Source: Candidatus Woesearchaeota archaeon
GTDB lineage: Archaea > Nanobdellota > Nanobdellia > Pacearchaeales > GW2011-AR1
Assembly: GCA_964344105.1 (NCBI GenBank)
Contig: CAYFMD010000002.1
Span: 2,905-66,904 of the forward strand
DNA length: 64,000 bases
Direction of reading: 5' to 3'
In this document: positions 17,925-44,000 of the stretch, in pieces
How positions within the stretch are numbered: the stretch's first letter is position 1
How the letters are laid out: the number at the start of each line of letters is the position of its first letter
Made by a program: the position numbers and the translations under genes
Notes under the pieces: model-generated
Database searches by the model: none
Seen by the model: the letters and a program-made list of their open reading frames with translations, nothing else
Told to the model about the DNA's origin: nothing

Positions 17925-18965
17925 TTATTTTTTTGTAGGATAGAATAAATAACAATCCTTACACAAATCAGGAGCTTTCCCTTCTTTGATCTGTTTTCTG
18001 AAATCCTTATATTTTTTAGACTTCCAGATAGTTTTCATATCTTGCTCAAAAACATTTCCCAAATTTTTGTTTCCAGCAATATCATCATACTCTCCCCCTT
18101 GATTAATGAAACAACAAGGTAAAACTTGTCCATGAACCGTCATATACATTGAATTAAATGCCCTTCTGCACTCATGCATAGGCCTCTTCTTAATAAATCC
18201 AAAATCTGCAACCACTCCAATCTCCTCTGCCCTTTTTTCAGTAATTGTTCTCATTTCATTGAATCTCCTCATATCTGCTTTGAGATGAGCAGTATCTTCA
18301 GAAGTATTCATGTTAGTTATTGTAACAGTTGGAACTCCTGTCTCTTTAGCAAACTCAATTATCTTAGGCATTTCATGAACATTCCAACTAGATGCTAAGA
18401 ATCTGATTATTGTTTTAGGCTTCCTTCTACCAGACAAAACTCTAAGCTCATTAAATCTCCTAATATTTTCCTTAACTTCCTCAAAATTTCCTCCAACTCT
18501 TATTTTTTCATAAGTTTCTTTACTGGCTCCATCAACAGAAAAGAAAACAACATCAACTCCCGTCTTTATTATCTTCTTAGAAATATCATCGTTCAACAAG
18601 GTAGCATTTGTAGTAAATGTGACTGTCGCTCCCTTTGACTTTAAGAAACCAACTATCTTCAAAAAATCCTTATTCATCAAACTCTCCCCAATTCCAGTAA
18701 GATCAAATAACAACAATCTAGGAAAAACTCTTGCTAGGGGATTGCCTTTCATTACAGAATCAAAAATATGCTTAAATTGTTCAAAACTCATAGCCTTTGT
18801 TTTATTAGATAATATGTTGTGTTCACACATTTCACAAGCTAAGTTACATCTAGTTGTATTCTCTACTTGAATAAACCAAGGAAATCCTGAAAAGTTAGCT
18901 AAAGACACATATAAATCCCTCCCAATCTTCCTCAGCCTCGCCTGATTGATCTGTAATTGCCTCAT
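17925..18965 (-). CDS. radical SAM enzyme with Cys-rich C-terminal (SPASM/twitch-like) domain
   Basis: CNLACEMCEH CxxxCxxC cluster. C-terminal cysteines CRRAF...PCCFIN...CKDC. Start placed at internal MRQLQ to avoid a 64-nt overlap; the ORF track runs to 19034. Confidence 0.65.
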   Translation of the reverse strand: MRQLQINQARLRKIGRDLYVSLANFSGFPWFIQVENTTRCNLACEMCEHNILSNKTKAMSFEQFKHIFDSVMKGNPLARVFPRLLLFDLTGIGESLMNKDFLKIVGFLKSKGATVTFTTNATLLNDDISKKIIKTGVDVVFFSVDGASKETYEKIRVGGNFEEVKENIRRFNELRVLSGRRKPKTIIRFLASSWNVHEMPKIIEFAKETGVPTVTITNMNTSEDTAHLKADMRRFNEMRTITEKRAEEIGVVADFGFIKKRPMHECRRAFNSMYMTVHGQVLPCCFINQGGEYDDIAGNKNLGNVFEQDMKTIWKSKKYKDFRKQIKEGKAPDLCKDCYLFYPTKK

Positions 18966-18970
18966 TTTGA

Positions 18971-20239
18971 TCACAGCTTTTGTAGGAAAAATACTATATA
19001 AGCATTTGCATACTCGACGGTAACCTCCTCCCAAGTTACTCCTTTAGATGGATAAACCCTATTCAAAACCTTCTTTCCCTTATCCAAAATCTTGATATCC
19101 AAACCATCTCTTTTAATACTATCAATAATGAATGGCAGTGCACCAAATATGTAAAGATCAGGTGATCTAAATCCAACATTTAACTTTCTATTCTCAATTT
19201 CCATTAATCTCTCTTTATATTTCTTAATCAAAACTAATCTAACAAAAGGAACAAGGGATCTAGAAATAATTTCATTACTAAACCCTATTTTACTCCTAAC
19301 AATATCATTAATATATGGTACATAAAATTTCTCTCCCATGCCTAATATAGCTCTAGAGAGATCTTCAACACTTTCAATTTTCTTTCCAAGGAATCTACTA
19401 AAAAAATATTTAGAAACCTTTAGCATATTCTCCTTAGCAACAAACCACTCCTCTTCCAAATTTTCAACTTTAGGCTTTTTAGGATCTATCTTCCAATGCA
19501 CATAATCTCTTATTTTATAATGAAGATCTGGAATCTCATCAAAAAGTTCTGGAAAATCTTTATCATAACTATCTAACAATATTTCCATAGAGGTTTTATA
19601 ACCAATTTGATACTTCCCAGAAAGCAGTAGAAGGGAAGTACATGCAGCAACATAAGCCTGCTGAACAAAATAAGATAAACATTCTTGTTCGTACTTGCCT
19701 TCTGAAGAATAGTATTCAATCAACTGACTCATTCTATCTAACAATAACTTAGCACCTTCAGATAATGGCATATCTTTCAAAGAAAAATTAGGAATAACTT
19801 TTCTAATATCCATTCCATAAAGAACCTTAGAATTATTCCTAAGCTCATAATTTCTAATTCTAGGTAATAACTTTCTTAAATCAGAAACCGTATCCCACTT
19901 CAAATCAATATAAAAATTATTGTCAATTCTTTGTTCTTCTTTTCTAAATGGATAGAAATTATCAATTCCTCTATAACCTAGTTTTTTAGAAATCTCAACC
20001 GAAATCTTATCTGCTTCTTCCTTGCCCAATTTTTTCTTAGAAACAATCTGTATGTCATAATCATTATAGGGCAAAACCTTCTCATCAACTAGCTTAACAG
20101 GACCCTCTCCTCTTGAAAATCCTCCTGTCAATATTATGGAAATAACCTCTGGATCTGCTTTTTTTATTTCAGAAACAATAAAATCCATGTCTGACTGAAT
20201 TTTCTTATCCGCCTCATCAGAAACAGTATAAACTCCCAT
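18971..20239 (-). CDS. Pol-beta-superfamily nucleotidyltransferase-fold protein with large helical C-terminal domain
   Basis: ILTGGFSRGEG followed by NDYDIQIV, a G[GS]...DxD pattern, then about 300 aa helical. Confidence 0.45.
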   Translation of the reverse strand: MGVYTVSDEADKKIQSDMDFIVSEIKKADPEVISIILTGGFSRGEGPVKLVDEKVLPYNDYDIQIVSKKKLGKEEADKISVEISKKLGYRGIDNFYPFRKEEQRIDNNFYIDLKWDTVSDLRKLLPRIRNYELRNNSKVLYGMDIRKVIPNFSLKDMPLSEGAKLLLDRMSQLIEYYSSEGKYEQECLSYFVQQAYVAACTSLLLLSGKYQIGYKTSMEILLDSYDKDFPELFDEIPDLHYKIRDYVHWKIDPKKPKVENLEEEWFVAKENMLKVSKYFFSRFLGKKIESVEDLSRAILGMGEKFYVPYINDIVRSKIGFSNEIISRSLVPFVRLVLIKKYKERLMEIENRKLNVGFRSPDLYIFGALPFIIDSIKRDGLDIKILDKGKKVLNRVYPSKGVTWEEVTVEYANAYIVFFLQKL

Positions 20240-23313: not shown

Positions 23314-24990
23314 TCACTGAATAACTTTCAATTCAACAACTTCAATCTTCTTATGTGGAATAGGTTCTGTAGCTCCTGGTTTCATAGCCGCTAAATCTTG
23401 TCTAGGATTATGTAAGTTAGCTAACATTCTAGCTGTCTGCTCTGGAGTCAAAATCTCATCTTCCACATTTCTTACTTCTGGTTTCCTGCTAAAGTCTTTT
23501 AGATGTCCAAACAAAGCAGTAACGCCTTCAAAGGTATACTTAACATCCTCCCAGCTTCTTATTCTAGATTTGGCATGATGCCAAATATAACTGGGTCTTA
23601 GGTAAGTCATATAATTGTGCTTACAAAGTCCCTGGATTTCTTCAGGTGTCATCTCCATATTCTTCAAAGCAGGCTGATCCATAGCTAACTTCTCATAATC
23701 ATCTTTCTCAAATCTCAGCCAACCTTCCTGAATAGCCTCTTCATATAATGGAGTTCCTGGGTAGGGCATAACAATTGTAGACTGATGGATATCAACTAAT
23801 CCTGCGCTCATCATCTTATCTGCAAGCTCAAAAACCCTCATAGAATCCTGCTTAGTCTCCCAAGGATAACCTACCATCATAGTCAAATGAACAGTTAGCC
23901 CAGCATCTTTGGCATCCTTACAATGTCCAAAAACCTTATCGATATCCGTACCCTTATCTAACTTATCAATAGTCTTCTGACAACCACTTTCCAAACCAAA
24001 CTTCAATAATCTAAATCCGGCCTTCTTCATCAACCTATACATCTCTGCATCAACCCAGCCAAACCTCATGTTACAACTATACATAACCTTCTCATTATAA
24101 CCACTTTCAATCATCAACTCACAAAACTTCTTCAACCAAGGGCCTGGAGGAATTGTTCCTGCATCATCAAAAATTTCTCTAGCTCCAAAATTATCAACTA
24201 AATGTTTAACCTCTTCAAATGTATTCTCCGGAGTCCTCTGCTTGTAAGCACCTTTAGGATATAATGCATGATCCCAAACACAAAAAGTACATTTTCCCCA
24301 AGCACAATCTCTAGCACTCATAATATAGAACTGAGGCCTTCCTTTCAAGTTAAACTCATCCTGATAGTTCATATATTTTGTTAGATTCCTATCTGGAAAC
24401 GGAGCATCATTAATATTCCTGTCAGTCTCTTTATAGAATTCATACCTACCATTCTCAACTACTTCTCCATTTTCATTTCTATACCATACTCCATGAGGTG
24501 CACCTTTCTTGCCTTCATTTAACCATTCAACCAAATCTGAGAAAGCAAAATCATAATACCCTCCATTAATCACATAATCCACCTTACTATTATCTAAAGT
24601 CTCTTTAGGAAGATAACTAACATGATCTCCACAAATTGCTATCTTCATCCATGGAAACTTTTCTTTCATGTGATTAATTCCTTTCCAATGAGCTTTAACC
24701 ACTGGAGCCTTTGTCTCAAACAAGAATATATCTGGCGTTTCCCTCTCAATTATCTTATCAAATTCTTGCCACCCCAAAAATTGAGCAATAGCGTCTTCCC
24801 AGATCACATCATGACCGTTCTCTTTGACCATTGTAGCACCAGTACCTAAAACAACTGGATACAAAAAAGTAGGTTTGTTAAAATACTGAAATTGTCTATT
24901 TTGGCTCAACAAAGGGGTTCCCAAAGGACTTTGCGTAGGCGGAAATCCCACCATTATCTTCATCTTCTTTTTCATATTATCACCATCCAT
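23314..24990 (-). CDS. B12-binding-domain radical SAM enzyme (class B, putative methyltransferase)
   Basis: CAWGKCTFCVW CxxxCxxC after an N-terminal domain of about 200 aa. 558 aa. Confidence 0.65.
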   Translation of the reverse strand: MDGDNMKKKMKIMVGFPPTQSPLGTPLLSQNRQFQYFNKPTFLYPVVLGTGATMVKENGHDVIWEDAIAQFLGWQEFDKIIERETPDIFLFETKAPVVKAHWKGINHMKEKFPWMKIAICGDHVSYLPKETLDNSKVDYVINGGYYDFAFSDLVEWLNEGKKGAPHGVWYRNENGEVVENGRYEFYKETDRNINDAPFPDRNLTKYMNYQDEFNLKGRPQFYIMSARDCAWGKCTFCVWDHALYPKGAYKQRTPENTFEEVKHLVDNFGAREIFDDAGTIPPGPWLKKFCELMIESGYNEKVMYSCNMRFGWVDAEMYRLMKKAGFRLLKFGLESGCQKTIDKLDKGTDIDKVFGHCKDAKDAGLTVHLTMMVGYPWETKQDSMRVFELADKMMSAGLVDIHQSTIVMPYPGTPLYEEAIQEGWLRFEKDDYEKLAMDQPALKNMEMTPEEIQGLCKHNYMTYLRPSYIWHHAKSRIRSWEDVKYTFEGVTALFGHLKDFSRKPEVRNVEDEILTPEQTARMLANLHNPRQDLAAMKPGATEPIPHKKIEVVELKVIQ

Positions 24991-28917: not shown

Positions 28918-31668
28918 TCATAACCTCCAACTCAAATACTTTCTATAATCCCTATCAACATATTCTTCCTTGAGTTCTTCATTTCCAGTATATTCAACTT
29001 CCCAGATCTTTATAGGTCCTTGAAGTCCTTGATAATAAACAAACTCTGGAAGATCCATTCCTCTAGCTCTCAAATCATCTAATATCAATGAAGATTGTGT
29101 ATGTGCCAACTTGAAGTTAGGGAAATTACCAAATGCATCATCCAATATGTAAACTTGTGCCAACATTCCTCTCAATAATCTTGGACTGACATACAACATA
29201 GCTCCTTGCTCTTGCAATGATGCCCTCCCATTTTCCACATTCAATCTCGGAATAACATATGCAACAGCTTCTATTCCCGAACCATAATCAAACAACTGAC
29301 CCTTAAAGTAGATGTATCTTAAGTTAACATCATATTGCTGACCTTGGTATGTCATTATTGCCCTAGGTTGCTCAAACACACCTGTTGCAGTATTAACAGG
29401 AGTAACTATTGCCCCAACACCTGCATTCCCTGAAGGTAATAATATCTCTCTACCATCTTTCTCAATAATCAAATCCTCATCTAACCCAATTCCTCCTGGA
29501 TATACAAATAGTGTTTGACTAGAAGTCTCTTGCGTCTGACTATCATCTAAAACAAAAGGTCTCATGAATGAATATCTATCAAAATTCTCATCACTTCCAA
29601 TACTAGAGAATGCAGTATATTTCCCAATATCTGTACTATCAATCAAAAAGTAATCTACATCATGATTATACAATAATTCTAAAGCATCATGTTGGTTATC
29701 TCCAGTCAATACATGCCTTCCAACGAGATAATTCCAATACACAATAGCATTGCCTCCATCTACCATGGTAGCTCTATCGCCTATACTTTGCACCCAATAA
29801 CCATAGTCCCACCAATGAGAAAAGACCGCATCTGTAGGTGTATTTTCCCTAACCCAATTCATAGCCCTCTGCCATTGCAGATTATATGAACTAGGAACAA
29901 AATTGTAAGCCTGATAACTAATGCTTTGATAATAAACATAGAATGTATAAAGGCTAGCAATCAAAATCAAAATCACTGCAAGTCCTACCAAAACCTTATT
30001 CACGCTTTCCTTTGACTTAGTATATCTATCTACTACTTCTACAACCAAGAATCCAACAAATATTGTGGATATTGGCCCAAGAACCATAATCAATCTAACA
30101 GCTCCTCTAACAGTAAATAGTGTAACTATAAACAAAGAAAACAACAAAATATATTCATATCTAATCTTCATGAAAGCATCATCTCCAGCTTTCTGATATC
30201 TAAGATATGTTCTCAATAACAGGTAAACAAACAATAGAACAGAAACATAATAGAACGCCTTACTTATCAAATTATCTCCATTAAACACACTGCTTGCAGA
30301 ATATCTGGAATAAACCATTCCAGCCAATAAGAACATAAAGCTAAATGTCAAAATCCAGGCATCTTTATTCTTCAATCTCATCAACATCTTCTTGAACAAG
30401 ACTACAGAACCAATTACAAACAACCAGAACATCAAAGCAATGTTCTTGAAGTAAGGGCCAAAGCTTCCACTCCATTCCTGGAAGTTAGGCTGCCTATTTT
30501 CAGCAACAGTTATATTCCATCTACCAAAGATTGGCTTGAAAATTGTCTGATGAATGACCTTTATCTTATCTATTATAAATTCAGGCCCCAATGCAACAAC
30601 ACTAAGAATAGCAATCACAATTATAGCAACAATAAAACTCTTGATTGGCCTAGGAATATCATATTTATTCAACAAACTCCAATTTCTAATTTTAGTATTC
30701 CAAACCAATCTATCTACAATCAAAACCAAGAACACAAAGACAGCACTTCCAGAAGACAATGAGGTTAGTGTAGAAAATAATTTATATCTTCCTGAAAAGA
30801 AAACCAGCATAGCGATAGAACTAATCAACCAAACCCCATAGGCATAAAAATGTCTTTTCTTAACCTTACCAAGTATGAAAGATATTAAGGCTGCAACAGC
30901 CATTGGAATAAACACATAAATTACTCCTCCCCAAATCAATCCCATTAATCCTGTAGAAATACCTGCCAATAATCCCCAAATCACTGATTTTTTAACAGTC
31001 AAAGATTTCCAAGCTTTCAAAAATAGATATAATGATAAAAACAAAAAGAAAAAGGCAGCACTTTCTTTCTCCGGAATTCCTGCAATAGTTCTTGATAAAA
31101 ATACAGGGGTAACTATCATAAAAAACGTAGCTATTAAAGACATAATATTGGCCTTCAAAACACCTTTCTTAGTTTTCCTAACAAACAATTCTCTAACAAA
31201 CAAAAAGAAACTAATTATAGTAAATCCAAACATAATTACTGGAAATATAACTCCTGCAAACTCAATAGGGTAATCTCCAAACCAATTAGCTATTTTATGA
31301 GTATATGCAATCATATACGGGAGCAACTGACTTTCAATGGAATTATCAAACCCCACCGGAACATTCCTCATCATATCAATCGCAGGCAAACTCCCCTCAT
31401 TTACTATAGTCTCCGCACTACGCAAGAACAACCAGGGATCTAAATCTGGACCCAATGTCCATGTCTGTGTAGTAATATCATAAAGCCCAGGATTACCCGA
31501 CTGATGCTCAGTCATTGGAAGAGCACGTATGTACATTCCCAAAATAACCGCAACTATCAACAAAACAACAACCCATCCCTGTCCCTTAGTAAGAAACTTA
31601 AATACCTTCTCTTTCCTTTCTTTCAATATATCACTACTACCTCTCAACTCACCAATTTCATCCATCAA
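28918..31668 (-). CDS. aglB: archaeal oligosaccharyltransferase AglB (STT3 homolog)
   Basis: 916 aa, N-terminal 13-TM domain plus a large C-terminal domain carrying SHWWDYGYWVQS (WWDYG motif). Confidence 0.9.
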   Translation of the reverse strand: MMDEIGELRGSSDILKERKEKVFKFLTKGQGWVVVLLIVAVILGMYIRALPMTEHQSGNPGLYDITTQTWTLGPDLDPWLFLRSAETIVNEGSLPAIDMMRNVPVGFDNSIESQLLPYMIAYTHKIANWFGDYPIEFAGVIFPVIMFGFTIISFFLFVRELFVRKTKKGVLKANIMSLIATFFMIVTPVFLSRTIAGIPEKESAAFFFLFLSLYLFLKAWKSLTVKKSVIWGLLAGISTGLMGLIWGGVIYVFIPMAVAALISFILGKVKKRHFYAYGVWLISSIAMLVFFSGRYKLFSTLTSLSSGSAVFVFLVLIVDRLVWNTKIRNWSLLNKYDIPRPIKSFIVAIIVIAILSVVALGPEFIIDKIKVIHQTIFKPIFGRWNITVAENRQPNFQEWSGSFGPYFKNIALMFWLFVIGSVVLFKKMLMRLKNKDAWILTFSFMFLLAGMVYSRYSASSVFNGDNLISKAFYYVSVLLFVYLLLRTYLRYQKAGDDAFMKIRYEYILLFSLFIVTLFTVRGAVRLIMVLGPISTIFVGFLVVEVVDRYTKSKESVNKVLVGLAVILILIASLYTFYVYYQSISYQAYNFVPSSYNLQWQRAMNWVRENTPTDAVFSHWWDYGYWVQSIGDRATMVDGGNAIVYWNYLVGRHVLTGDNQHDALELLYNHDVDYFLIDSTDIGKYTAFSSIGSDENFDRYSFMRPFVLDDSQTQETSSQTLFVYPGGIGLDEDLIIEKDGREILLPSGNAGVGAIVTPVNTATGVFEQPRAIMTYQGQQYDVNLRYIYFKGQLFDYGSGIEAVAYVIPRLNVENGRASLQEQGAMLYVSPRLLRGMLAQVYILDDAFGNFPNFKLAHTQSSLILDDLRARGMDLPEFVYYQGLQGPIKIWEVEYTGNEELKEEYVDRDYRKYLSWRL

Positions 31669-31741: not shown

Positions 31742-33262
31742 ATGAAAAAGAGGTCGAAGAAGAAATCTTCAAATAATTTATTTTCAAATAGAAATCTGAT
31801 TATAGCATTAGTAATCTTAGTAATAATAATTTTAATCCCAAAGGGAGGCATAACTGGAAACGTAACCAATGATGCAGAATCTGATGGAGGATTTATTGAC
31901 ACTTTAATAGATTTTTTTACAGGAGGCGAATCTTTTGATGATTTATTCTCAGCATTTTTAGTAGATGAAGAAGATGAGGAATTCCATCTATGCTGTGATA
32001 ATAGAGACGAGTGTACAAGACCAGAGTTAGACAATGCGATAAAAACTTGCTTAAGAAATCAAGAGGGTGGACAAAAATACCATGAGGATTGCGGGGATAG
32101 CGGGATTTGTTTAATAGATTGTTTAGAAGACAGCCATTGTGGAAATGGGGAATTTTGCTGTAATAAAGATGCATTCGGAGAAAATGGCTGTACAGGATTC
32201 CAAGCAGGAAGATGTTTTGCAGATCCAGATGCACCTACAGATGAGGGCAATAATGATGAATCAGAAAATACTGATGATGGAAAAAGATGTTGTGTAGCCG
32301 TTTATACTGAAAGACAGGACTTCCCTTGCGATATTATAACTGACGAACAAACTTGTCTAAACGCAGAAGCTGGAAATGTTGCTTCAGATACTTGTGGATG
32401 GGATGAAAACACATTTACATGCTTTAACAATGAAGCTAAACTATGTGAAAATTCAATGCCTCAAGATTGTGACCAAATAATATGGCACCCTACAGATGGA
32501 AGTCTTTCGGGAGTAAGCCCTACTGACAGCGTGGACATATCTGAACTAGATATTCCAGATGACTGTGGATCTGATATTCACATAGAATATTGTGGACATG
32601 GGGTAACTGATGCTTGTGAAGAATACATTGAATTGGGATTTAATATAGCAGCAATGACTGAGGGCACATGTAATGCAGTTACGCTAGATTCAACAGCTTG
32701 CTACCTATTCTCTGATATTGATGCAGCAATACAAGCAGCAAAACAAGAATGCTTAGCAACAGGAACAAATTGTGAAATTTCAATAACTGCAAACCAATGT
32801 CAAGGGTTCATATGGCCTGATAAATGTACTGAGGTTGAAGGGACTAGTACCGAGGTAACTCTTTGTATAAAAGACGGAGAAGTAACTGTTGACTACAATC
32901 CTTGTCATGCAGTTGGTATAAGTTGCTACAACCCAAGTAGTAGTTGGCAATGCGAGATAACTGATGATAATGGAGATATTAAACTAGTCGAGCAATTCTG
33001 TTGTGGCCAGTTCCAAGGATTTGGAAATTGGCACTATCCAGGCCTGCCCTGCCCGGGCTATGAAGAAAACTCTTGCTTGGAAGATCAACTTTGCACAGAA
33101 ATACAGGAACAAAGTGGAGACACAAGAACCTGTAATGTTCAAGAGAATGGCCAAATAGTTGAGAAGGACCAAATCTGCTGCAAGGAACAAAGGGCTCCTT
33201 CCCCTGGAGAGCCTCTAGAATATGATTATGTCTGGAGGAATCTCGGTGAGTGCTTTGGATAG
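31742..33262 (+). CDS. cysteine-rich secreted/surface-anchored protein, family member 1
   Basis: Leader MKKRSKKK..SNRNLIIALVILVIIILIPKGGITGNVTN, then an acidic domain with about 1 Cys per 8-9 residues. TATA-like TTTATATA about 28 nt upstream. Confidence 0.6.
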   Translation: MKKRSKKKSSNNLFSNRNLIIALVILVIIILIPKGGITGNVTNDAESDGGFIDTLIDFFTGGESFDDLFSAFLVDEEDEEFHLCCDNRDECTRPELDNAIKTCLRNQEGGQKYHEDCGDSGICLIDCLEDSHCGNGEFCCNKDAFGENGCTGFQAGRCFADPDAPTDEGNNDESENTDDGKRCCVAVYTERQDFPCDIITDEQTCLNAEAGNVASDTCGWDENTFTCFNNEAKLCENSMPQDCDQIIWHPTDGSLSGVSPTDSVDISELDIPDDCGSDIHIEYCGHGVTDACEEYIELGFNIAAMTEGTCNAVTLDSTACYLFSDIDAAIQAAKQECLATGTNCEISITANQCQGFIWPDKCTEVEGTSTEVTLCIKDGEVTVDYNPCHAVGISCYNPSSSWQCEITDDNGDIKLVEQFCCGQFQGFGNWHYPGLPCPGYEENSCLEDQLCTEIQEQSGDTRTCNVQENGQIVEKDQICCKEQRAPSPGEPLEYDYVWRNLGECFG

Positions 33263-33299: not shown

Positions 33300-34694
33300 A
33301 TGGTGAAGAAAAAAACTTCTAAAAATAATGTATTATCAAACAAAAACTTACTTATAGCATTGGGATTAGTAATCCTAGCTATAATTCTTTACAACATATC
33401 TGGAATAGAAAATGAATCTGGATTGGGGCAAGCATCTCCTGGATTCAATACTTTTTTCTCAGCTTTCGTAGGTGCGCCTGATGCGGGAGATATGGAAACT
33501 CCTGGGAAGGATGATAGCGTTTCTTGTTCAGGAGGGAGATATTGCCCAAGAGGAACCAAGTGTGTAAAGTCAACAAATAAATGTGTTAAATATTGTGATC
33601 CTGCGCAATTTTATTGTAGCCCTTCAGTAGACGATCCTAATAAAGACGGAATTTGTGACAAGCAAGAAAGAGTTTGTGTTTCTTGTTTTATTAATGAAGA
33701 TGGAGAGAGCATAGGGTGTGATGCAAATCCAAACGGGGAAGTTTGCATAGGCACTCCTGGAAAGCGTGAATGTGTGCAATGTAGTTCAGATGATCATTGC
33801 CCTGTGAGAAATGGAAACCAAGATCATGATTTCTGTGTAGATAATAAATGTGTTGAATGCACCAAAAGAGAGCATTGTGGAGATAAAGAAGTCTGTACAG
33901 AAAACAAGTGTGTCCCAATAACAAGCTGCAGAGGTGATGATGGATTTGGAGATATTGATTTATGTAAGGAGCCTTATGACGTTTGTTATGTTTCAGGTTA
34001 TTCTGGAGGAAGCGACGGTGATCCAAACGATCCAAACGATCCAAACCCTATTTGTGTAGCCTGCGCAAATAATCCTAATGTCCCTCCCAATGGGGTGATT
34101 GTGGGATGCGACGATCCTAGAAAGCCTGCATGTGATTTTGGCCCCGCACTACGCAGATGTGTTGAGTGTACGGGAGATAGTCACTGTCCGAATGATAAAC
34201 CTAAGTGTATGGATTATGAGTGTGTTGAAAGATGTGTAGAAAATAGTGATTGTCCAGAAGGATATTGGTGTGCGAATAATCCTAGAGAGTGTGTTGTACC
34301 TAATTATGAATGTGACCTCGCTAATGGTGATCTTGATTGCCCAAGAGGTTACACTTGCCTCGATCCGGATATTACTGGAGCTAGAGATCCTTATTGTGTG
34401 CCTCTACCAAAAGAGAACGGAGATTTCATAGACTGTAATCCAAATGACCCTGATGCCTGTCCTGCAAATACCAAATGTGGGCCAGTTGGAAATATTGGTA
34501 ATAAATGTAAGCCAAAGGAGTGCACGAATTCTATAGAATGTTCAGACCAATATATTTGTAAGAAGTTTCTTCAAGGAGGCACTCTTAGTGAAAGGGGAAC
34601 TTGCTTACCTCCAGTACCTGCAACAGGAGAATGCACTGGACATAGGGACTGTCCTTTTGGAGCTCAATGTATAAACGACAAATGTGCTGTTTAA
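33300..34694 (+). CDS. cysteine-rich secreted protein with CVECxxDxHCP repeats, family member 2
   Basis: Leader MVKKKTSKNNVLSNKNLLIALGLVILAIIL, about 52 Cys, repeated KCV(E/Q)C(T/S)xxxHCP modules, DPNDPNDPN encoded by a 9-bp tandem repeat. Confidence 0.6.
   Translation: MVKKKTSKNNVLSNKNLLIALGLVILAIILYNISGIENESGLGQASPGFNTFFSAFVGAPDAGDMETPGKDDSVSCSGGRYCPRGTKCVKSTNKCVKYCDPAQFYCSPSVDDPNKDGICDKQERVCVSCFINEDGESIGCDANPNGEVCIGTPGKRECVQCSSDDHCPVRNGNQDHDFCVDNKCVECTKREHCGDKEVCTENKCVPITSCRGDDGFGDIDLCKEPYDVCYVSGYSGGSDGDPNDPNDPNPICVACANNPNVPPNGVIVGCDDPRKPACDFGPALRRCVECTGDSHCPNDKPKCMDYECVERCVENSDCPEGYWCANNPRECVVPNYECDLANGDLDCPRGYTCLDPDITGARDPYCVPLPKENGDFIDCNPNDPDACPANTKCGPVGNIGNKCKPKECTNSIECSDQYICKKFLQGGTLSERGTCLPPVPATGECTGHRDCPFGAQCINDKCAV
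34019..34045 (+). repeat. 9-bp tandem repeat x3 (gatccaaac) encoding DPNDPNDPN
   Basis: Direct reading: gatccaaacgatccaaacgatccaaac. Confidence 0.8.
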
Positions 34695-34835
34695 CTACCC
34701 AAAAACCCTATCCATCTCATCCAATAACTCACTAGCACTACCGTGCTCTTGAAAATCATTCATTCCACATAACTTACACTCACTAATATCTTCAGAATGA
34801 TCTGTACCACAATTCTTACATTTATATGTAACCAT
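34695..34835 (-). CDS. small C4 zinc-ribbon protein
   Basis: MVTYKCKNCGTDHSEDISECKLCGMNDF (CxxC...CxxC). Start placed at internal Met to avoid overlap; the ORF track runs to 34943. Confidence 0.4.
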   Translation of the reverse strand: MVTYKCKNCGTDHSEDISECKLCGMNDFQEHGSASELLDEMDRVFG

Positions 34836-34840
34836 CTTTC

Positions 34841-35701
34841 TTAAAACAATGCAGGAGTTATGAAAACTTCTATCAATGCAGCAACAAATAAAATCAAAAC
34901 AGCAGCAATAACTAGGTTCAAAGAATCCTGTAAAATGGTCCAAAACTTGTCAGACCTCAAATCATGTTTAATTATAGCAATACTTACTATTCCTCCTGCC
35001 AATGCCCCAATAAAATAACTCCCTATCTCTGGAACCCCATGTATCATATACCTTCCTAGTGCCAGAGGCAAATTACTCAAACTTCCCTTAGAAAAGATTC
35101 CTATTGCTGCCGCTATAACGCTAGCATTCCAAGCCAAGATAAATATAGCTCCCGCACCAAATATCAGGGAGAACAGCAAGGTAAATATCAAAACGTAGAT
35201 ATTATTTATGAAAATATTAACAATCTTATCTTTAGCAGATAAAAATCCAGTTGTGCTAGGATCATGGCCTAATCCATAATCAGAAATACACTGCTCAAAG
35301 TTTGTAGGCCTATTAATCAAACAATACGTCTCTATCTGCGCTCTAAAGCTCTGATTCCCATCCTCAAATACAATATACCAGAAACTAAAGGCAACAATAA
35401 ATCCTAAAAACAAAAACATAAGGTAAGTCAAGGCCTTTCCATGTTCTTCTAACAATCGCCAAAAGCCAGTGCTAGTCAAATCCTTCTCCTCTTCATACTT
35501 TATAGCAAAATACAAGAAAGGAATAGTAAACATAACACAAAAAGTAACTATCAGCATACCTGTATATTGTGACAATACTGGATCTCCAGAAAATATCCAT
35601 TGGGTCAAAAACAAAGACACTGTAGCATAGAAAGCTCCAATAAAAAACATCTCCCACGGCCTCTTCTCAGCCTTAACCGGGTTAATTAACATCTCAAACA
35701 C
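34841..35701 (-). CDS. SpoIIM/DUF95-family polytopic membrane protein
   Basis: N-terminal MFEMLINPVKAEKRPWEM, multiple TM helices, MIHGVPEIGSYFIGALAG segment typical of DUF95. Confidence 0.5.
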   Translation of the reverse strand: MFEMLINPVKAEKRPWEMFFIGAFYATVSLFLTQWIFSGDPVLSQYTGMLIVTFCVMFTIPFLYFAIKYEEEKDLTSTGFWRLLEEHGKALTYLMFLFLGFIVAFSFWYIVFEDGNQSFRAQIETYCLINRPTNFEQCISDYGLGHDPSTTGFLSAKDKIVNIFINNIYVLIFTLLFSLIFGAGAIFILAWNASVIAAAIGIFSKGSLSNLPLALGRYMIHGVPEIGSYFIGALAGGIVSIAIIKHDLRSDKFWTILQDSLNLVIAAVLILFVAALIEVFITPALF

Positions 35702-36713
35702 TTTCTTTACCTCCTTTAGTTCTCCTCTTTTGAATAATCGCTAACCTATTTCTTAACACAGGAAGCTCCTGATCTATCTTATGCAATCGGTCTTTATATT
35801 TCTTTACCCTAATGTTATATACAAGTCCTGAGATAGCATTTTTCTTATACCTGTCTATTTGCGTCTTCTTTATCAAACTAATCAACACATTCCTCTCTTG
35901 CTTCATCTTAGCTATCTTTTTCTTCAATATCTTAATACTAACTTTCTTACTTCCATAATATGTGCCTCCTATAATTAGAACAATCAAAACTAGAAGTAGT
36001 ATCCAATATCTCTGAACGAAATTCTTAGCCCCATCTCTAACTCCTGAAATAAAACTACTTCCCTCTCTATCTGATTCTATAGAATCTCTCAACCTATCTA
36101 ATAATTCCTGGGTATCCTGATATCTTTCCTCTCTAAACGCTATATCAACTTCTTCTACAAGATTAACCGTCAACTCACTCGGTTCTTTTAATGACTCAAA
36201 ATCCTCATTTCTCACCTTAATCATATCTTCTAATAACAATGACTTAGTTTCTCTTTCCTTTATCTGATCAGTTAGTTCAATAACCCCCTCATAATATATC
36301 TCTTCCCAATTTACCAATCTAAGTGCCGCTCTGGCTCTAGCCTTTTCCTCCAAATTAGGGCTATTGCTTCTTAGGATGTCTGCAAATTTAGCTCTCTCAA
36401 ATACCCGTCTAGCCTCCAATAAAAGATCTTCAACAAACAACGTATTAAACCCATGCTCTTTCATTATAGATATAGATCTATTAGCCTCCTCTATAGCTTC
36501 TAAGGCCATTTCTTCTGTAACTATAACCTTTTCATCACTATCATTAATTATTGCAAAACCAGTAAACAATCCTCTTCTCTCAATCCCCAAGCTTTCGTCT
36601 ATCAAATCATTCATCTCCGAGTTAGCAATATTAAAAGCTGTATAACTAACAAAACTAACAACTATGAAAATTCCTAAAACCCACAAAAACTTATCACTAA
36701 ATCTCATCTGCAT
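35694..36713 (-). CDS. bitopic membrane protein: extracellular helical domain, TM, basic cytoplasmic coiled coil
   Basis: N-terminal signal anchor, second TM (YWILLLVLIVLIIGG), K/R-rich C-terminal tail. Confidence 0.45.
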   Translation of the reverse strand: MQMRFSDKFLWVLGIFIVVSFVSYTAFNIANSEMNDLIDESLGIERRGLFTGFAIINDSDEKVIVTEEMALEAIEEANRSISIMKEHGFNTLFVEDLLLEARRVFERAKFADILRSNSPNLEEKARARAALRLVNWEEIYYEGVIELTDQIKERETKSLLLEDMIKVRNEDFESLKEPSELTVNLVEEVDIAFREERYQDTQELLDRLRDSIESDREGSSFISGVRDGAKNFVQRYWILLLVLIVLIIGGTYYGSKKVSIKILKKKIAKMKQERNVLISLIKKTQIDRYKKNAISGLVYNIRVKKYKDRLHKIDQELPVLRNRLAIIQKRRTKGGKESV

Positions 36714-39183
36714 CCTCCTTATATTTTAACTCAATCCACTTTCCTTTATAGTCTTGATCCTTCGATTGTTCTTTCAATCTTTCTATTATCTCGTTATCTA
36801 TCATCATAACCCCTCTTTCATCTTTCTTCATTTTCTTAGCAAGCTTAGTAGCTTTATCCTTGCTCTTAGCAAACAAACTCTTAGCGCTATTGCCTAATTT
36901 ATTAAGCTTAGAACCTGCTCTTTCAGACAAAGATGGCTTAGAATCTGGTAATTGATCTCCAAGAGCTTCTTTATTCTTTTTGACAATTTTCTTCTTTTCT
37001 AGTCTTTTTTCAACCCACTTCTTCTCGGGAATATCTTCTATTACCTTTCCTCTATTCTTATTCTTCGACAAACTTAATGTAATCCTGTCATCCTCTATCT
37101 CTGCAAATCTCTCATTCATCTCTTTGAATTCAGCATCATATTCTTTCTGAGAGATATTATGTTTAACAAAATAATCTGTCTGAAGAGTTTTGACTTGATG
37201 TTCTAATTGCTTCTTCTCAATTTCAAGATCATTAATTATTTCAGCCGGAGCCAGTAATTTTATTCTTTTGTTTCTCAATTCAACTCTAGCCTTTCTTAAC
37301 TTAGCTAACTTATCTCTATGGTTATCCATAGCACTCTCAAATTCCTCTGAACTCATCTTCCCGCTATAATATTTAGCCTGAGTTTTTCTAAATAGCCCCC
37401 TAATATTAGCCTCTTCCTTAATACCATCCTCTATCTTCCTACTTATGCTAGTCTTTTGGTATTGCTTAACGCCCATAATACTCAAGAATGTAAATATTAT
37501 TACACCTATCACAACAAAATACCAGTAAAGATAAAGGAACAAACCAACATTCCCTCTTCTCTCTAACAACAACATAACTTGGGCTGATTTAGCCCTTTCT
37601 TCCGCAAGATCATAATCTCCTCTTTCAAAAGCTACCTGGGCCAGATCAACAACTTCTTCTATAGAACTGTCAGCAAATATAGCTTTTCCAGAAATTAAAG
37701 CTCTAACAGGAACCATCTTTCCATCTTCATCTCTAACTTCCTTGGCCACATTCCCTGTAATAAGATTGGTCTTCTTAGGATCTTCCAAAGCCAGTTTAAG
37801 ATTATCAATCAGTTCTTTTACTTCAAATGCTTTATCTTTAATTTTAATTATCCTTTTTGCAATATCTAAAGCAAATTTATTATCTTCCCCAAGGTTTTCA
37901 TTAATCTCTTTAATTAACTCCTCTACAATTTCTACATTGAATAAAGCCTCCTTCATTTCTTCCAGAGCCCTCTTCGCCTTATCAACAAAATCAGTTATTT
38001 CCTCATCACCAACCTCTTCAATAATCAGCTTAATATTTTGAGTTTCTTTATAGGATGTCTCAATTCCCTTAGTAAGTTTGATTCCAGTCACATCTGCTCT
38101 CAAGGTATGCACTTCACGCTCTTCCTTATAGGCAGGAATTTTTATCTTAACATTAAAATATTTTTTATCTTTTGAATCTATTGAATCAATAGTCTTAGGA
38201 TTTATTTCAATATACTGAGCAAAAAAACCACTAATTTCTAATTTTAGATCTTTTAGAATCGTATCTGTAAATTTATTTTCGACTTCAATTTCAAAACTAT
38301 CCTCTTGGCCCCTAACTATTCTAATCTCTTTTGAATAAATTGTAGCTGAGCCTCCCCCACTACTACCTCCGCCTCCTCCGCCACCACTTTCACTACCTCC
38401 TGATTCGACTACTGTGGCTGCAGGACCTGATCCTACATCAACCTCATTTACAGTAACATTCTTGCTGCCGACTTCTATTAGATTTGAGGTTAGGTTTGAA
38501 TCAGTATTGTTTAATCCAGTAACATTAGCATATAGGGTTACCGTTCCCGGAGTAGCCGTAGAATTAATATCTACAGTTAATGTAAAATTATTTTGTTCGT
38601 TTACACTTAATGTGCCAACTGACCTACTTAGTGTTCCTGTAGTGTTAATCCATCCATTAGGCAAGCTAAAATTCATTTCAACATTCTTTGCATTGCCTTG
38701 TCCCTTATTAGTAACCGAGACTATTAATTGAATTCCTGTATTATTTTGTGAAACAATGCTAGGTGCAGTTTCAAAACTTGTGATCAAAAATGGGTTTGCC
38801 GACGTTGCAACAATGTTAGCAGTAAATGTGGCAGAAGCAGGAACACTGGCAACATTGGCATCTGTGTCATTAACAGAGATATTAAATGTTATTAATGTAG
38901 AGCCTTCAGTACTAGGAGTTGTCACATTAACCTGCAAAGTTCTACTATCATTGCCATCAATGTTAGTGTTATTCAAATAAAAAGGAAAAGATGTATTGAA
39001 TGCTATATCTCCTTCAAAATCACTAGTTATATTCAATACGGTTATATTTTTGCTAGTGTGGGTATCATTTATTGTAAGGTTCCCAATAGTTTTATTTACA
39101 TTTAATGCTGTTGCAATATTACCAAAAGATTTCTGCAGATAGTTCCAAACAGTACCAATCAGAAAACTTCTTGTAGAACTCAT
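36697..39183 (-). CDS. large surface protein: sequon-dense extracellular beta-rich domain, Gly-rich linker, TM helix, cytoplasmic K/E coiled coil
   Basis: About 20 N-x-S/T sequons in the first 250 aa. CARDB-like SVTNKGQGNAKNVEMNFSLPNGW, then SGGSESGGGGGGGSSGGGS, TM GLFLYLYWYFVVIGVIIF and a coiled-coil tail. Confidence 0.55.
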   Translation of the reverse strand: MSSTRSFLIGTVWNYLQKSFGNIATALNVNKTIGNLTINDTHTSKNITVLNITSDFEGDIAFNTSFPFYLNNTNIDGNDSRTLQVNVTTPSTEGSTLITFNISVNDTDANVASVPASATFTANIVATSANPFLITSFETAPSIVSQNNTGIQLIVSVTNKGQGNAKNVEMNFSLPNGWINTTGTLSRSVGTLSVNEQNNFTLTVDINSTATPGTVTLYANVTGLNNTDSNLTSNLIEVGSKNVTVNEVDVGSGPAATVVESGGSESGGGGGGGSSGGGSATIYSKEIRIVRGQEDSFEIEVENKFTDTILKDLKLEISGFFAQYIEINPKTIDSIDSKDKKYFNVKIKIPAYKEEREVHTLRADVTGIKLTKGIETSYKETQNIKLIIEEVGDEEITDFVDKAKRALEEMKEALFNVEIVEELIKEINENLGEDNKFALDIAKRIIKIKDKAFEVKELIDNLKLALEDPKKTNLITGNVAKEVRDEDGKMVPVRALISGKAIFADSSIEEVVDLAQVAFERGDYDLAEERAKSAQVMLLLERRGNVGLFLYLYWYFVVIGVIIFTFLSIMGVKQYQKTSISRKIEDGIKEEANIRGLFRKTQAKYYSGKMSSEEFESAMDNHRDKLAKLRKARVELRNKRIKLLAPAEIINDLEIEKKQLEHQVKTLQTDYFVKHNISQKEYDAEFKEMNERFAEIEDDRITLSLSKNKNRGKVIEDIPEKKWVEKRLEKKKIVKKNKEALGDQLPDSKPSLSERAGSKLNKLGNSAKSLFAKSKDKATKLAKKMKKDERGVMMIDNEIIERLKEQSKDQDYKGKWIELKYKEDADEI

Positions 39184-39185
39184 AT

Positions 39186-39887
39186 TTAAGTTATCTTCGT
39201 CTTCTCCAGAAATTTAAAAAGTTGACTAATATACATTCTGTAAGAATCATCCTTTTTCGTAAAGGCACTAGCAATGGCCGTAAGAGAGTCTATTGCTATA
39301 AAGTCTGGATCCTGAAAATCCTTCGGCAAAAAAATGGGATTGATGTCTATAAGTAGTTCTCCCTTTTGTTTAGCCATCATAGCATCAACATTTCTCATTA
39401 TATCAAAAGGATCTGATCTAACTATTCTTAAATTTCCCTTCTTTATCAGTTTCTTTGCAGGCCATCCAAAACCTTCCATATGTTCAATCAATCTCTCTTC
39501 AGACTCCTCCAGGGTCATAATCAAACATTTCTTTCCTTTAGTAGCATGGTGAACCAAAGACTGTAAGCAAGTTATGGTCTTACCACTCCCTGCCCCTCCA
39601 GATATCAATAGGGAACTACCTTTTGGAACCCCCTTAAACAACAATTTATCTAGGCCCTCAATCCCCATCTTTACCGAATTTGCAGAAATAATACTCTTTT
39701 CTTTGATTTTTAACTTTGTCAGGGGGTTTCTTTGTCTCTTAATGCTCCCATTCAACTTATTAGATATAGACTTAAAATCTATCTGAGAGCTATTTTTAAC
39801 AGGAACCTTTCTCGTAACTATCCTATCAGTAGAAACATTTTTTGCCACTCCCTGATCCTTATTAACCAAAACCTCTTTTCTAACCAT
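39186..39887 (-). CDS. KaiC/RecA-superfamily ATPase (single domain) with Lys-rich N-terminal extension
   Basis: GIEGLDKLLFKGVPKGSSLLISGGAGSGKTITCLQ (Walker A) and Walker B-like FIAIDSL. Confidence 0.6.
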   Translation of the reverse strand: MVRKEVLVNKDQGVAKNVSTDRIVTRKVPVKNSSQIDFKSISNKLNGSIKRQRNPLTKLKIKEKSIISANSVKMGIEGLDKLLFKGVPKGSSLLISGGAGSGKTITCLQSLVHHATKGKKCLIMTLEESEERLIEHMEGFGWPAKKLIKKGNLRIVRSDPFDIMRNVDAMMAKQKGELLIDINPIFLPKDFQDPDFIAIDSLTAIASAFTKKDDSYRMYISQLFKFLEKTKIT

Positions 39888-39942
39888 ATGTAATTAAACA
39901 AAAATTATTATTTAAACTTTCTCTATAAAATTTTTTGAAAAA

Positions 39943-40823: not shown

Positions 40824-41117
40824 ATGAAATGTTCTAAATGCAAGAGTAAAAGAATAGTTAAACAGGGTCTGAGAAAAAATCAATCAGGAAATAAACAAAA
40901 ATATCAGTGTTTGAATTGCAAGAATTGGTTTGTTGAAAATGATGGATTCATTAGGATGAGACATGATCCAACAATAATTACCAAAGCGATTCATATGCAC
41001 AAAGATGGTATGTCTTTCTATAGTGTTGCCAATCATCTCTGGCAGTATGATGGTGTGAGGGTGACGCCAATGACTGTTTGTAATTGGACCGTAAAATACG
41101 GTGCTTTTTTAAAATAG
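40824..41117 (+). pseudogene. transposase N-terminal zinc-finger/HTH part (frame 0), ends at TAG just after a T6A4 tract
   Basis: ORF ends ...KYGAFLK-stop at 41115-41117. The T6A4 run lies at 41105-41114. Confidence 0.55.
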
Positions 41118-41748
41118 GATAAATGAGCTGGTTGAACCACAGCTCAAAGGAAGACAACATCTAGATGAAAAGTATGTCAAGCTAAGAGGTAAGCATTACT
41201 ACGATTTGAATTGTATAGATAACAAGAATAAGTACATAACAGCTCATTTGTTCGTCGCTGAGAGAACAAATGAGAAGTGTATAGAATTTTTATCTGAGAT
41301 AAAAAGAAATTGCTACGGCCAGATTCTGTATAGGTATTATATTGAGAAGCATAAAAAAGTAGACGATAGGCAACTTATAACTTTTGTTTGCGATGGATTT
41401 GAAAATTACAGAAATGCGTTCAATAAATTGTTTTATAGAGTTGCTAAATTGCAGTTCGGTGTTCCAATCAAACTGCAGAGATTTGGAGTGAAGCATAACA
41501 ACAATCCAATAGAGAGATATAATGGAAAGTTGAAAGATAGGATCAAGGTTTTGAGAGGAGGATTTGGAAGTTTTGAAAGAGCTAGTGCTTTTATGAATCT
41601 TCAAAGAGTTGTCCATAATTTTGTGAACCCTCATCAAGGTCTGCAGGGAAAGACACCTGCAGAAATGGCTGGGATAAAGTTGAATTTAGGAAGAATGAAA
41701 TTGCTAAACCTGATTAAGTATGTGGCAGAAAACTTACCTGACGATTAG
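41113..41748 (+). pseudogene. transposase DDE catalytic part (+1 frame), open from 41113
   Basis: Frame-1 reading NRINELVEPQLKGRQHLDEKYVKLRGKHYY... continues into the tracked ORF 41206..41748. Confidence 0.55.
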
Positions 41749-42197: not shown

Positions 42198-42620
42198 TTA
42201 CTGCAAACCAAAACCTTTACTCAAAATTATACTAAAAACTATTGAACTTCCAATATACCACCACAACCAACTCCCAGATAAACTTGTAAGTGCATAAATA
42301 CTCCTCATCCAAGCAAAAACCAACAAGATAGGGATCATTGTAACCAACATCGGCTTGAAGCTCATCTTCATTTGCTCTGGCATATCTTCCAACATCTGCT
42401 GATTGATCTGCATCATCTTATCAGGATTATTCTTATGCTCTTTCATCTCAGCCCTAAGAGCTTTCTGCTTCTCTCTAAGTGCCTTCATCTTCTCCTTATC
42501 CGTCATATAATATCTAACTACTGTAATAAACAAGGTCACTAAGAAACTAATTGCAATTATAGACCCTTTCGGATTACTTATCACCCATGCTTGTATATCA
42601 ACCATTTTTATATTTATCAA
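42198..42620 (-). CDS. DUF106-family membrane protein (archaeal Oxa1/YidC-like insertase)
   Basis: TM, then a K/E-rich coiled coil, then TMs. Sits immediately next to secY, as is common in archaea. Confidence 0.55.
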   Translation of the reverse strand: MINIKMVDIQAWVISNPKGSIIAISFLVTLFITVVRYYMTDKEKMKALREKQKALRAEMKEHKNNPDKMMQINQQMLEDMPEQMKMSFKPMLVTMIPILLVFAWMRSIYALTSLSGSWLWWYIGSSIVFSIILSKGFGLQ

Positions 42621-42635: not shown

Positions 42636-44000
42636 CTAAACACCCATCATTTTCTTCATCGCAGGGTTCATATCCATTGCATGTTGCTGAGCGATATTCT
42701 GATAGAACTGGAATGTAATCATTATTCCTAACAACAAGGCTGTTCCAGCTACAATAGCTCCAAGAACATCGGCAAGAGCAGCTAACAATCCAATTGCCAA
42801 ACCGCCCATTACTGTCAATGGCATAACATATCTACTTAAGATAGATTCTAAAATTCTATGGTCTTTTCTAAATCCTGGAATCTGTAATCCTGATTTCAAA
42901 ATATTATTTGCTTGAGCACCAGCATCCATTCCACTAGTCTTTACCCAAAACACTGAGAACAATGCACAAAAGAACATATAGAATACAATGTGTCCAAATG
43001 TCTGCAACAATAATGCATTCTCCCAACTTCCAGTGATTATTCTCTCAACAATATTTGTACTACCAATCCAATACAAGAATCCTGAAACTGGCTGACCATT
43101 AACTACATTACCTAGGAAAGTAGGTCTTCCTAACCAATTCTGTAATAATCCTCCAAATAGAGTAAAGTTAGCGATCAATGCACTTGTTAATATAACTGGG
43201 ATAACCGAAGCATAAAGGAACTGCAATGGCCACTTCATACTATATCCTCTCAATCTATCATAACTCAATGGAATCTCTATCTTCAAATTCTGTATCCATA
43301 CAACAATCAAGAATAGTATTATTGTAGCAACTATTGCTGCACCAGCCAACATAGCTCCTTGACTATCGGCATTCATTAAACTAACTACAAATGCAATAAC
43401 TCTTCCAGAAGCCTGGAATTGTCCCTGAGTTCCTAAGAATCCAAAGCTAGCTGTTATCAACTGCCATCCAACTCCTGCTGCGATAAACAAACTAACTCCT
43501 GAACCGAATCCCCATTTCTGGCAAACCTCATCCATAAACAAGATAGCCAATCCACCTAACATTAACTGAAAGATAACTATTCCTGTAAATCCTGGAGCCG
43601 CCTGAATACCCCCCATCATAACATAAATTATAGATTCAAATATTATGAAGAAGAATACCATTAACTTCTGTAATCCTTGAAAAAATTTCTTACCTTCTGC
43701 AGTACTAGTGTCAATATTCAATATCTGACTTCCAACTAATAGCTGCAAGATAATACTTGCCATAACGATAGGACCAATACCTAACGATATAATCGAACCA
43801 AAGTTAGTTCCTAAAATAACTGCTAAGAATTCGAACTGCTCTAAGAATCCTGGATCTGCTCCATAAAGTGCAATGTTGGACATTACAAAAAACGCAACTA
43901 GAATCATTAGAGTCCACTTTAACTTAACATTAAAACTCAACTTCTTTTCAGTAGGCGGAGTTACTTCAGGTAAATTATGCAGTATATCTCTAAGTGCCAT
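42636..44000 (-). CDS. secY: preprotein translocase subunit SecY
   Basis: 454 aa, 10 TM helices, position after uL15, N-terminal MALRDILHNLPEV. Confidence 0.9.
   Translation of the reverse strand: MALRDILHNLPEVTPPTEKKLSFNVKLKWTLMILVAFFVMSNIALYGADPGFLEQFEFLAVILGTNFGSIISLGIGPIVMASIILQLLVGSQILNIDTSTAEGKKFFQGLQKLMVFFFIIFESIIYVMMGGIQAAPGFTGIVIFQLMLGGLAILFMDEVCQKWGFGSGVSLFIAAGVGWQLITASFGFLGTQGQFQASGRVIAFVVSLMNADSQGAMLAGAAIVATIILFLIVVWIQNLKIEIPLSYDRLRGYSMKWPLQFLYASVIPVILTSALIANFTLFGGLLQNWLGRPTFLGNVVNGQPVSGFLYWIGSTNIVERIITGSWENALLLQTFGHIVFYMFFCALFSVFWVKTSGMDAGAQANNILKSGLQIPGFRKDHRILESILSRYVMPLTVMGGLAIGLLAALADVLGAIVAGTALLLGIMITFQFYQNIAQQHAMDMNPAMKKMMGV

Follow-up and report, generated by a model that had tools for sequence, protein, structure and literature searches.

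An 828-codon open reading frame near AglB in a Candidatus Woesearchaeota archaeon, a likely deletion relic of a giant surface-protein gene

The stretch of DNA considered here, called the window throughout, comprises 64,000 nucleotides from Candidatus Woesearchaeota archaeon (contig CAYFMD010000002.1 of assembly GCA_964344105.1, positions 2,905 to 66,904 of the forward strand); coordinates are window positions unless a locus is named. On the minus strand lies an open reading frame (ORF) with an ATG start and a product of 828 aa (36697..39183), which matches the C-terminal ~830 residues of much longer homologues and is read as what remains, at the 3' end, of a gene for a giant surface protein. 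It is preceded by a 3'-truncated gene for a KaiC-like ATPase and followed by the gene for a smaller paralogue with two transmembrane (TM) segments. The initial annotation had proposed the 828-aa product as a major N-glycosylated cell-surface protein. It appears likely instead that the ORF is a deletion relic of a gene for an exported, sequon-rich, membrane-anchored giant surface protein, this copy probably being a recent pseudogene.

Domain architecture of the 828-codon frame

The 828-aa protein contains 21 N-x(not P)-S/T sequons, 20 of them between residues 30 and 242, as many as the roughly 20 first noted near the N-terminus, and one at residue 676. When residues 1-265 were shuffled, 9.5 +/- 2.5 sequons were obtained against the 20 observed, and 20 or more arose in 0.015% of 20,000 shuffles (P ~1.5e-4); the excess is therefore larger than the N/S/T-rich composition explains. 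The density within residues 1-266 is 7.5 sequons per 100 aa, compared with 0.35 in the other 67 ORFs of the window, a difference of ~21-fold.

An AlphaFold2 (AF2) model of the protein, computed from a 10-sequence alignment and reaching a mean predicted local distance difference test (pLDDT) score of 65, consists of three beta-sandwiches followed by a helical region that leads through a TM helix into a helical tail. Residues 1-13 (39145..39183, minus strand, as are all segments of the ORF) appear to be the orphan last strand or strands of a deleted upstream domain, judged by their homology to the internal segment ...NLNMSSTRxFxIG of the full-length proteins; the pLDDT there is below 50. They are followed by two sequon-dense beta-sandwiches, domain 1 (residues ~14-126, 38806..39144), delimited by AF2 strands and sequon positions, and domain 2 (residues ~133-243, 38455..38787), which is of the NEW3/NPCBM_assoc (CARDB-like) type and matches Pfam PF10633 over residues 154-221 (E=6.4e-9, 36.3 bits against a cut-off of 24.4). 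The CARDB-like fold that the initial annotation had advised looking for was thus recovered in domain 2, and the NEW3/NPCBM_assoc (PF10633) and CARDB-type E-set beta-sandwich domains count among the closest known systems. The Gly/Ser linker SGGSESGGGGGGGSSGGGS (residues 261-279, 38347..38403), conserved in all homologues and modelled with a pLDDT below 50, leads to beta-sandwich domain 3 (residues ~282-389, 38017..38340), recognised from the AF2 model and free of sequons, and to a helical membrane-proximal domain (residues ~393-540, 37564..38007), a paralogue of the ectodomain in the 339-aa protein encoded downstream. A single predicted TM helix (residues ~546-572, 37468..37548; Kyte-Doolittle (KD) hydropathy up to 2.34, within an AF2 helix of residues 524-606) precedes the putatively cytoplasmic, K/E-rich, helical (coiled-coil-like) tail (residues 573-828, 36700..37467), whose 63 K+R and 48 D+E give it a net positive charge. 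The linker, helical region, single TM helix and K/E-rich tail described at the outset were accordingly all located.

Structure comparisons of the model returned generic Ig-like and helical-hairpin matches only. A match of the coiled-coil tail to the NCBIfam model BrnA (21 bits against a cut-off of 60) was dismissed as compositional. Residues 789-828 (36700-36819) carry the motif RGV(M/L)(M/L)I(D/N)N.I...LK......(K/R)GKWI.L, which comes after a low-complexity basic stretch and is common only to the homologues P0002 and P0003.

An N-terminal signal was not found in the 828-aa ORF, the maximum KD value of 19-residue windows that begin within residues 1-30 being 0.57. A Tat-like signal in STRSFLIG was considered and rejected, as this segment has one Arg only, lacks a hydrophobic h-region and corresponds to an internal conserved strand in the homologues. 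The lack of an obvious signal peptide had been remarked upon in the initial annotation and turned out to be the key point.

Full-length relatives and the deletion junction

A word-indexed search yielded an identical protein and five full-length homologues of 1317-1446 aa (P0002-P0006), which are 43-49% identical to the ORF product over the shared region, i.e., over the whole 828 aa. All five have an N-terminal signal peptide (KD 2.8-3.1) and annotated Laminin_G_3 (LamG) domains, and for four of the five NPCBM_assoc is annotated. The 828-aa protein aligns only to the C-terminal part of these homologues, from residue ~553-684 onwards (~553 in P0003, at ...NLNMSSTRxFxIG), and shares with the family a collinear module of two beta-sandwiches, poly-Gly linker, third beta-sandwich, helical domain, TM helix and helical tail (E down to 1e-207). 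Full-length relatives range from 1317 to 2797 aa, with LamG lectin domains in the closest ones. An exhaustive HMMER search at E<=1e-3 returned 705 clusters at 50% identity; among the matches listed that cover the query N-terminus, the target extends 98 to ~3900 residues further upstream, P0044 being the sole exception. Apart from the identical 828-aa form, no protein more than 50% identical was found in 5.8 billion sequences, and a scan of a genome collection for relatives retrieved only the metagenome-assembled genome (MAG) that encodes P0003. A search of PDB sequences with a six-sequence family alignment matched the LamG region only, the part that is missing from the window copy. No description of the giant surface-protein family or of its linkage to KaiC was found in the literature searched.

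Short homologues were considered as natural signal-less forms and rejected. The four short matches that were inspected (P0044, P0087, P0037 and P0054) all start with a residue other than Met and are therefore regarded as contig-end fragments, and P0009 is cut by a contig end. P0007, with 1063 aa in the database, represents only part of its gene, whose ORF runs on without interruption (L011:1799-10192) and encodes 2797 aa including a signal peptide.

The full-length homologues carry 39-56 sequons before the Gly linker, 0-6 between this hinge and the TM helix and 0-3 after it, a pattern compatible with an N-out/C-in topology in which the distal part is glycosylated and the stalk next to the membrane is bare. 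The stretch from hinge to TM helix (37549-38340 in the window), in the homologues as in the window, is a sequon 'desert' with 0-6 sequons in ~260-320 aa, although an extracellular position is expected for it, and its K/E-rich composition resembles that of a cytoplasmic protein. Twelve sequon columns are common to all six aligned family members; the 828-aa ORF keeps 14 of 17 family-conserved columns and adds five private sequons.

Identity to the relatives is unevenly distributed along the window ORF. For stalk, TM helix and tail it is 60% to the protein of locus L017 as opposed to 34-57% to other, more distant relatives among P0002-P0016, whereas for beta-sandwich 1 it is 21% to L017 as opposed to 42-48%, and for beta-sandwich 2, 46% as opposed to 51-61%. 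This mosaic implies that the distal part has its own history and, on sequence grounds, suggests that heads have been swapped or that the part distal to the poly-Gly hinge has diversified very fast. In a relative-rate comparison aimed at relaxed selection, in which lineage and mosaic effects are mixed, the window protein was the more diverged in the Ig domains.

Among known systems, the same domain order is found in giant proteins of Pacearchaeota and other DPANN archaea, such as KAR52_02010 (P0003, 1433 aa, annotated as 'hypothetical protein') and the 1777-aa protein of L017. The loci agree with the window in having a small paralogous partner gene downstream and a KaiC-like gene upstream of the big gene; the window copy differs in lacking the first ~550-900 residues (signal peptide and LamG or other head) and a ribosome-binding site (RBS) of its own. 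In archaeal S-layer and surface glycoproteins such as Haloferax volcanii Csg and Sulfolobus SlaA/SlaB, N-glycosylation by AglB is combined with a beta-sandwich-rich ectodomain and a C-terminal membrane anchor, and the giant family resembles them in this general design. It differs from S-layer glycoproteins in its unusually long cytoplasmic helical tail of 150-310 residues and in heads that are highly variable across the 705 clusters. The 828-aa ORF matched no S-layer family in Pfam or NCBIfam.

The gene directly upstream on the minus strand (39186..39887) encodes a KaiC-like ATPase of 233 aa with Walker A (GGAGSGKT) and Walker B (FIAIDS) motifs and is truncated at its 3' end. The match to Pfam PF06745 (E=4.4e-29) covers only positions 1-157 of the 231 profile positions, and matches to the NCBIfam KaiC/ArlH models are likewise cut. 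The product is 51-53% identical to orthologues of 412-499 aa, whose genes immediately precede the big gene at related loci, and ends 84-87 residues before they do; the C-terminal third of the ATPase is gone, and its core domain is incomplete. A TATA-box-like element, TTTAAATA (39909..39916, minus strand), was read directly from the sequence ~25-30 nt upstream of the ATG of this remnant and is a putative promoter of the operon.

The deletion junction was located at 39201..39213 (minus strand) by tblastn and by direct reading of the sequence. KaiC homology (frame -3) ends at nt 39201-39204, and big-gene homology (frame -2) begins at 39213-39210, which is 27-30 nt upstream of the ATG at 39183. 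In the frame of the ORF, big-gene homology runs 10 codons upstream to a stop codon, and the codons in between give *ISGEDEDNLN-M, which corresponds to FSVEDNDNLNM of P0003. Big-gene DNA read out of frame makes up the last 7-8 codons of the KaiC-like ORF (LEKTKIT*), and the ATG of the 828-aa ORF sits 2 nt past the stop codon of the KaiC remnant. Readthrough from this stop codon into the ORF in the same frame was rejected, as the frames differ (-3 and -2), and so was extension of the ORF to an alternative upstream start, as no start codon lies between the ATG and the stop 10 codons upstream of it. No Shine-Dalgarno (SD) motif was found before the ATG at 39183; GGAGG-like motifs at -5 to -14 precede the partner and SpoIIM genes, many of the sampled genes for ribosomal proteins and the big genes in four of five relatives examined.

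The deletion measures ~1.9 kb relative to L008, 2.2 kb relative to L001 and roughly 4 kb relative to L017. The missing head, signal peptide and KaiC parts were not found elsewhere in the 64-kb window. Regarding its cause, deletion mediated by an insertion sequence (IS) was rejected, as the junction shows no repeat or IS end and a prefoldin gene separates it from the IS240-like element. That element, an IS240/IS6-like transposase gene at 40824-41748 (plus strand), is itself broken up into two ORFs, one for 97 aa with a Zn-ribbon and one for 180 aa of the DDE type (PF13610, E=1.3e-5); it lies between the VanZ and prefoldin genes, 0.9-1.6 kb from the junction and not adjacent to it, and has no counterpart in the syntenic regions of L017 and L018.

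The source of the window is a metagenome assembly, and the IS element lies close by, so that a chimeric join or a collapsed repeat, with intact genes in the real genome, has to be weighed. Such an artefact is extremely improbable: the junction lies in DNA that is 100% identical to the window in four separate assemblies from two projects and by different assemblers (runs ERR2281801, ERR2281802, ERR2281803 and SRR22722177), no repeats occur at the junction, and the search of 5.8 billion sequences returned nothing closer than 50% identity other than the identical 828-aa form.

The absence of an export signal bears directly on the proposal that the 828-aa product is a functional, exported, N-glycosylated and even major surface protein, its N-out/C-in orientation being achieved by the TM helix acting as a reverse signal-anchor. 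The excess and conservation of sequons, the position of AglB ~5 kb away, the integrity of ORF and partner gene and the greater positive charge after the TM helix speak for this proposal, which is nonetheless unlikely. Without a signal peptide, which all complete relatives have, 545 residues would need N-terminal translocation; the ORF also begins inside a domain at the deletion junction and lacks an SD motif. For the epithet 'major', in the sense of an S-layer-like protein, the outcome is negative, given the lack of S-layer similarity in Pfam and NCBIfam, the highly variable heads and the absence of the locus in the close relative L018. The more general proposal of an N-glycosylated surface protein is supported at the level of the family, in which signal peptides are present and the sequon pattern fits an outside location, and is not supported for the window copy, from which signal and head have been deleted. 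The initial annotation had itself named a cytoplasmic sequon-rich domain as a finding that would speak against it, and since an export signal is missing, the cytoplasm is the default location of this part of the window copy.

Partner gene, AglB and synteny

The gene following the big ORF (35694..36713, minus strand) overlaps its stop by 17 nt, is preceded by a GGAGG Shine-Dalgarno motif and encodes a 339-aa protein with two predicted TM segments. This protein is a paralogue of residues 391-639 of the 828-aa ORF (BLASTP E=2e-4, collinear over 284 aa) and is 41.5% identical to the 333-aa protein of L001; the big gene is likewise followed by an orthologue, of 277-337 aa, in L001, L009, L011, L013 and L014. 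A gene for a SpoIIM-like membrane protein (34841-35701, minus strand, PF01944) overlaps the end of the partner gene by 8 nt and is followed by a small Cys-x2-Cys ORF (34695-34943, minus strand); SpoIIM is not part of the cassette at the related loci examined.

Upstream of the big gene, a KaiC-like gene is present in five related loci (L001, L008, L010, L015 and L016), in which it is preceded by a receiver (REC) gene and a gene of ~200-226 aa; the latter matches DUF7090/DUF7504 (inactivated-KaiC-like, iKaiC) in L001 and L008. Histidine kinase (HK) genes lie upstream in the cassettes of L001 and L010. Archaeal KaiC-like ATPases are described as signalling hubs (Makarova, Galperin and Koonin 2017, as cited in PMC5847659 and PMC4858521). 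The upstream gene resembles these hubs and ArlH/FlaH in belonging to PF06745, and the cassettes of relatives resemble them in their REC and DUF7090/DUF7504 genes, several of these cassettes also having HK or sensor genes upstream; the window differs in that its ATPase lacks the C-terminal third and in that REC, iKaiC and HK genes are all missing from the 64 kb. The literature searched contained no link between this KaiC subfamily and a giant surface protein.

AglB/STT3 (28918..31668, minus strand; PF02516, E=1.7e-16; PF21436, E=3e-6) is adjoined by glycosyltransferase GT4, GT2 and epimerase genes, so that AglB and glycan-biosynthesis genes do occur in the window as first reported. Adjacency to AglB is not conserved at those loci of full-length homologues that were examined. 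Two Cys-rich proteins of 506 and 464 aa are encoded between AglB and the operon (31742-33262 and 33300-34694, plus strand); they have N-terminal signal-anchor-like segments and weak DUF7107/EB-module matches, with no firm Pfam family. Two radical-SAM genes (17925-19034 and 23314-24990, minus strand), one with a SPASM domain, lie near the glycan-synthesis genes.

The closest relatives were recognised by SecY (42636-44000), which is 92-99% identical to theirs; those that are named belong to Candidatus Pacearchaeota. An EMC3/TMCO1/YidC-like insertase gene (42198-42620, minus strand, PF01956) directly downstream of SecY is kept in L017 and L018. In L017 (SecY 94%, prefoldin 75% identical), the order ribosomal proteins, SecY, EMC3/YidC-like, VanZ, prefoldin is conserved, and prefoldin is followed by a ParA-like gene, a 74-aa ORF, a KaiC-like gene, a 66-aa ORF, a nitroreductase gene on the other strand, a ribbon-helix-helix (RHH) gene and the 1777-aa gene. 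The last, at the syntenic site, is intact and encodes the signal peptide MRKIFLLMLVVLLIGSVSALS; its residues ~948-1677 match residues 37-746 of the window protein. The KaiC-like gene of L017 (L017:5695-6285, 177 aa) has the C-terminal 85 residues that are missing in the window and lacks the Walker A half, the place of which is occupied by the ParA-like gene and the 74-aa ORF. As the KaiC gene is truncated at opposite ends in the window and in L017, the KaiC partner must have been damaged independently in two lineages. In L018 (SecY 93%), no part of the cassette is present after prefoldin. The three differ at this locus, which is therefore taken to be a fast-changing island.

Interpretation of the remnant and of the intact family

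The window copy shows several features expected of a pseudogene, being shorter than all complete homologues, starting inside a domain, lacking an RBS and having a neighbour that is cut at the same point. The sequence comparisons show the homology, the junction at which both genes are cut and its recurrence between assemblies, and they make a truncation of the big gene highly probable. That this copy has thereby lost export and function is inferred with less assurance, as somewhat the more probable outcome. According to the favoured explanation, a deletion of ~1.9-4 kb in a Candidatus Pacearchaeota (DPANN) genome left the 3' ~60% or less of a gene for a giant type-I membrane surface protein. 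Codon ~226 of the KaiC-like gene came to adjoin codon ~553 of the big gene, in a different frame. The deletion would have removed the C-terminal third of the ATPase, any intervening small genes and the RBS, signal peptide and head (~550-900 codons) of the big gene. The 828-aa frame would then begin at a fortuitous internal Met and be translated, if at all, by termination-reinitiation; its sequon-rich part would stay cytoplasmic and unglycosylated, and the TM helix could not take its native N-out/C-in orientation.

A number of observations weigh against this explanation. Secondary decay was not found: the 828 codons contain no internal stop or frameshift, and the sequons are kept. Under neutrality, a first nonsense change would be expected after ~21 substitutions (~0.8% divergence), yet the frame is intact; the deletion is thus either very recent, or the remnant is still under some selection. 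The spacing of 2 nt between stop codon and ATG would allow translational re-initiation, and the partner gene is intact. Finally, the split between the two ORFs of P0010 in L013 falls at nearly the same alignment position as the start of the window ORF, which could mean that a signal-less module exists as a polypeptide of its own.

Retention of the remnant for a new or residual function that does not depend on export, e.g., pairing of TM helix and tail with the 339-aa protein, the former ectodomain being carried along as dispensable baggage, would account for the frame being intact against the neutral expectation, for the intact and tightly coupled partner gene and for the conservation of stalk, TM helix and tail, which are the best conserved parts relative to the closest relative (60% identity). 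It is nevertheless rather improbable. A cytoplasmic N-terminal part would force the TM helix to insert against the charge bias, with translocation of a highly charged tail of 256 residues; an SD motif is lacking; and no diverged orthologue with the same truncation was found, all copies being 100% identical.

At L013:2640-2880, an ATGA stop/start overlap divides P0010 into an ORF for the head (922+ aa) and one for the module (733 aa). A frameshift or a sequencing error could lie behind this, as could a genuine arrangement of two genes. The last of these would provide a precedent for a split gene in the present organism, with head and signal peptide encoded elsewhere in the genome and the parts acting as separate subunits. 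We consider this very improbable: the window holds no head-like sequence, the simultaneous truncation of the KaiC-like gene fits a simple deletion, and a module made in the cytoplasm would still be without an export signal. A relic left by deletion remains the favoured explanation.

In the relatives, the signal peptide of the intact protein would send the N-terminus out through Sec. Exposed in this way would be a head that varies in make-up, with LamG lectin or other Ig-like domains, and the two beta-sandwiches rich in sequons, all of which would be N-glycosylated by AglB. The poly-Gly hinge would connect these to a non-glycosylated stalk of beta-sandwich and helical domain, followed by the TM helix and a basic helical cytoplasmic tail. 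The small two-TM paralogue probably pairs with stalk, TM helix and tail, and the tail is probably linked to signalling by the co-encoded histidine kinases, receiver domains and KaiC-like ATPase. More tentatively, the conserved C-terminal module might be the common anchor of an undescribed DPANN family of giant surface proteins with exchangeable heads, integrin-like pairing with the small paralogue and wiring to REC, inactive-KaiC and KaiC-like ATPase proteins, possibly serving as an outside-in signalling adhesin for host cells, of which the window would represent a stage of erosion within a Pacearchaeota clade.

The most sequon-rich ORF near AglB is thus a signal-less remnant and not the major glycoprotein of the cell. 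Recognising it as such prevents a mis-annotation, as the 828-aa ORF is unfit as a model AglB substrate or as an S-layer candidate for this organism. The eroded copies within the clade, i.e., the window copy, the Walker-A-less KaiC of L017 and the empty site of L018, indicate a rapid turnover of the locus. With 705 clusters at 50% identity, the uncharacterised full-length family is large; its members carry variable heads on an anchor that is conserved, usually have a paralogue as partner and often neighbour KaiC-like and receiver genes. As DPANN archaea rely on contacts with their host cells, a role of the giant family in attachment or in sensing such contact is a reasonable proposal. What the window holds is a gene remnant of an ordinary kind, and the greater interest lies in the family from which it derives.

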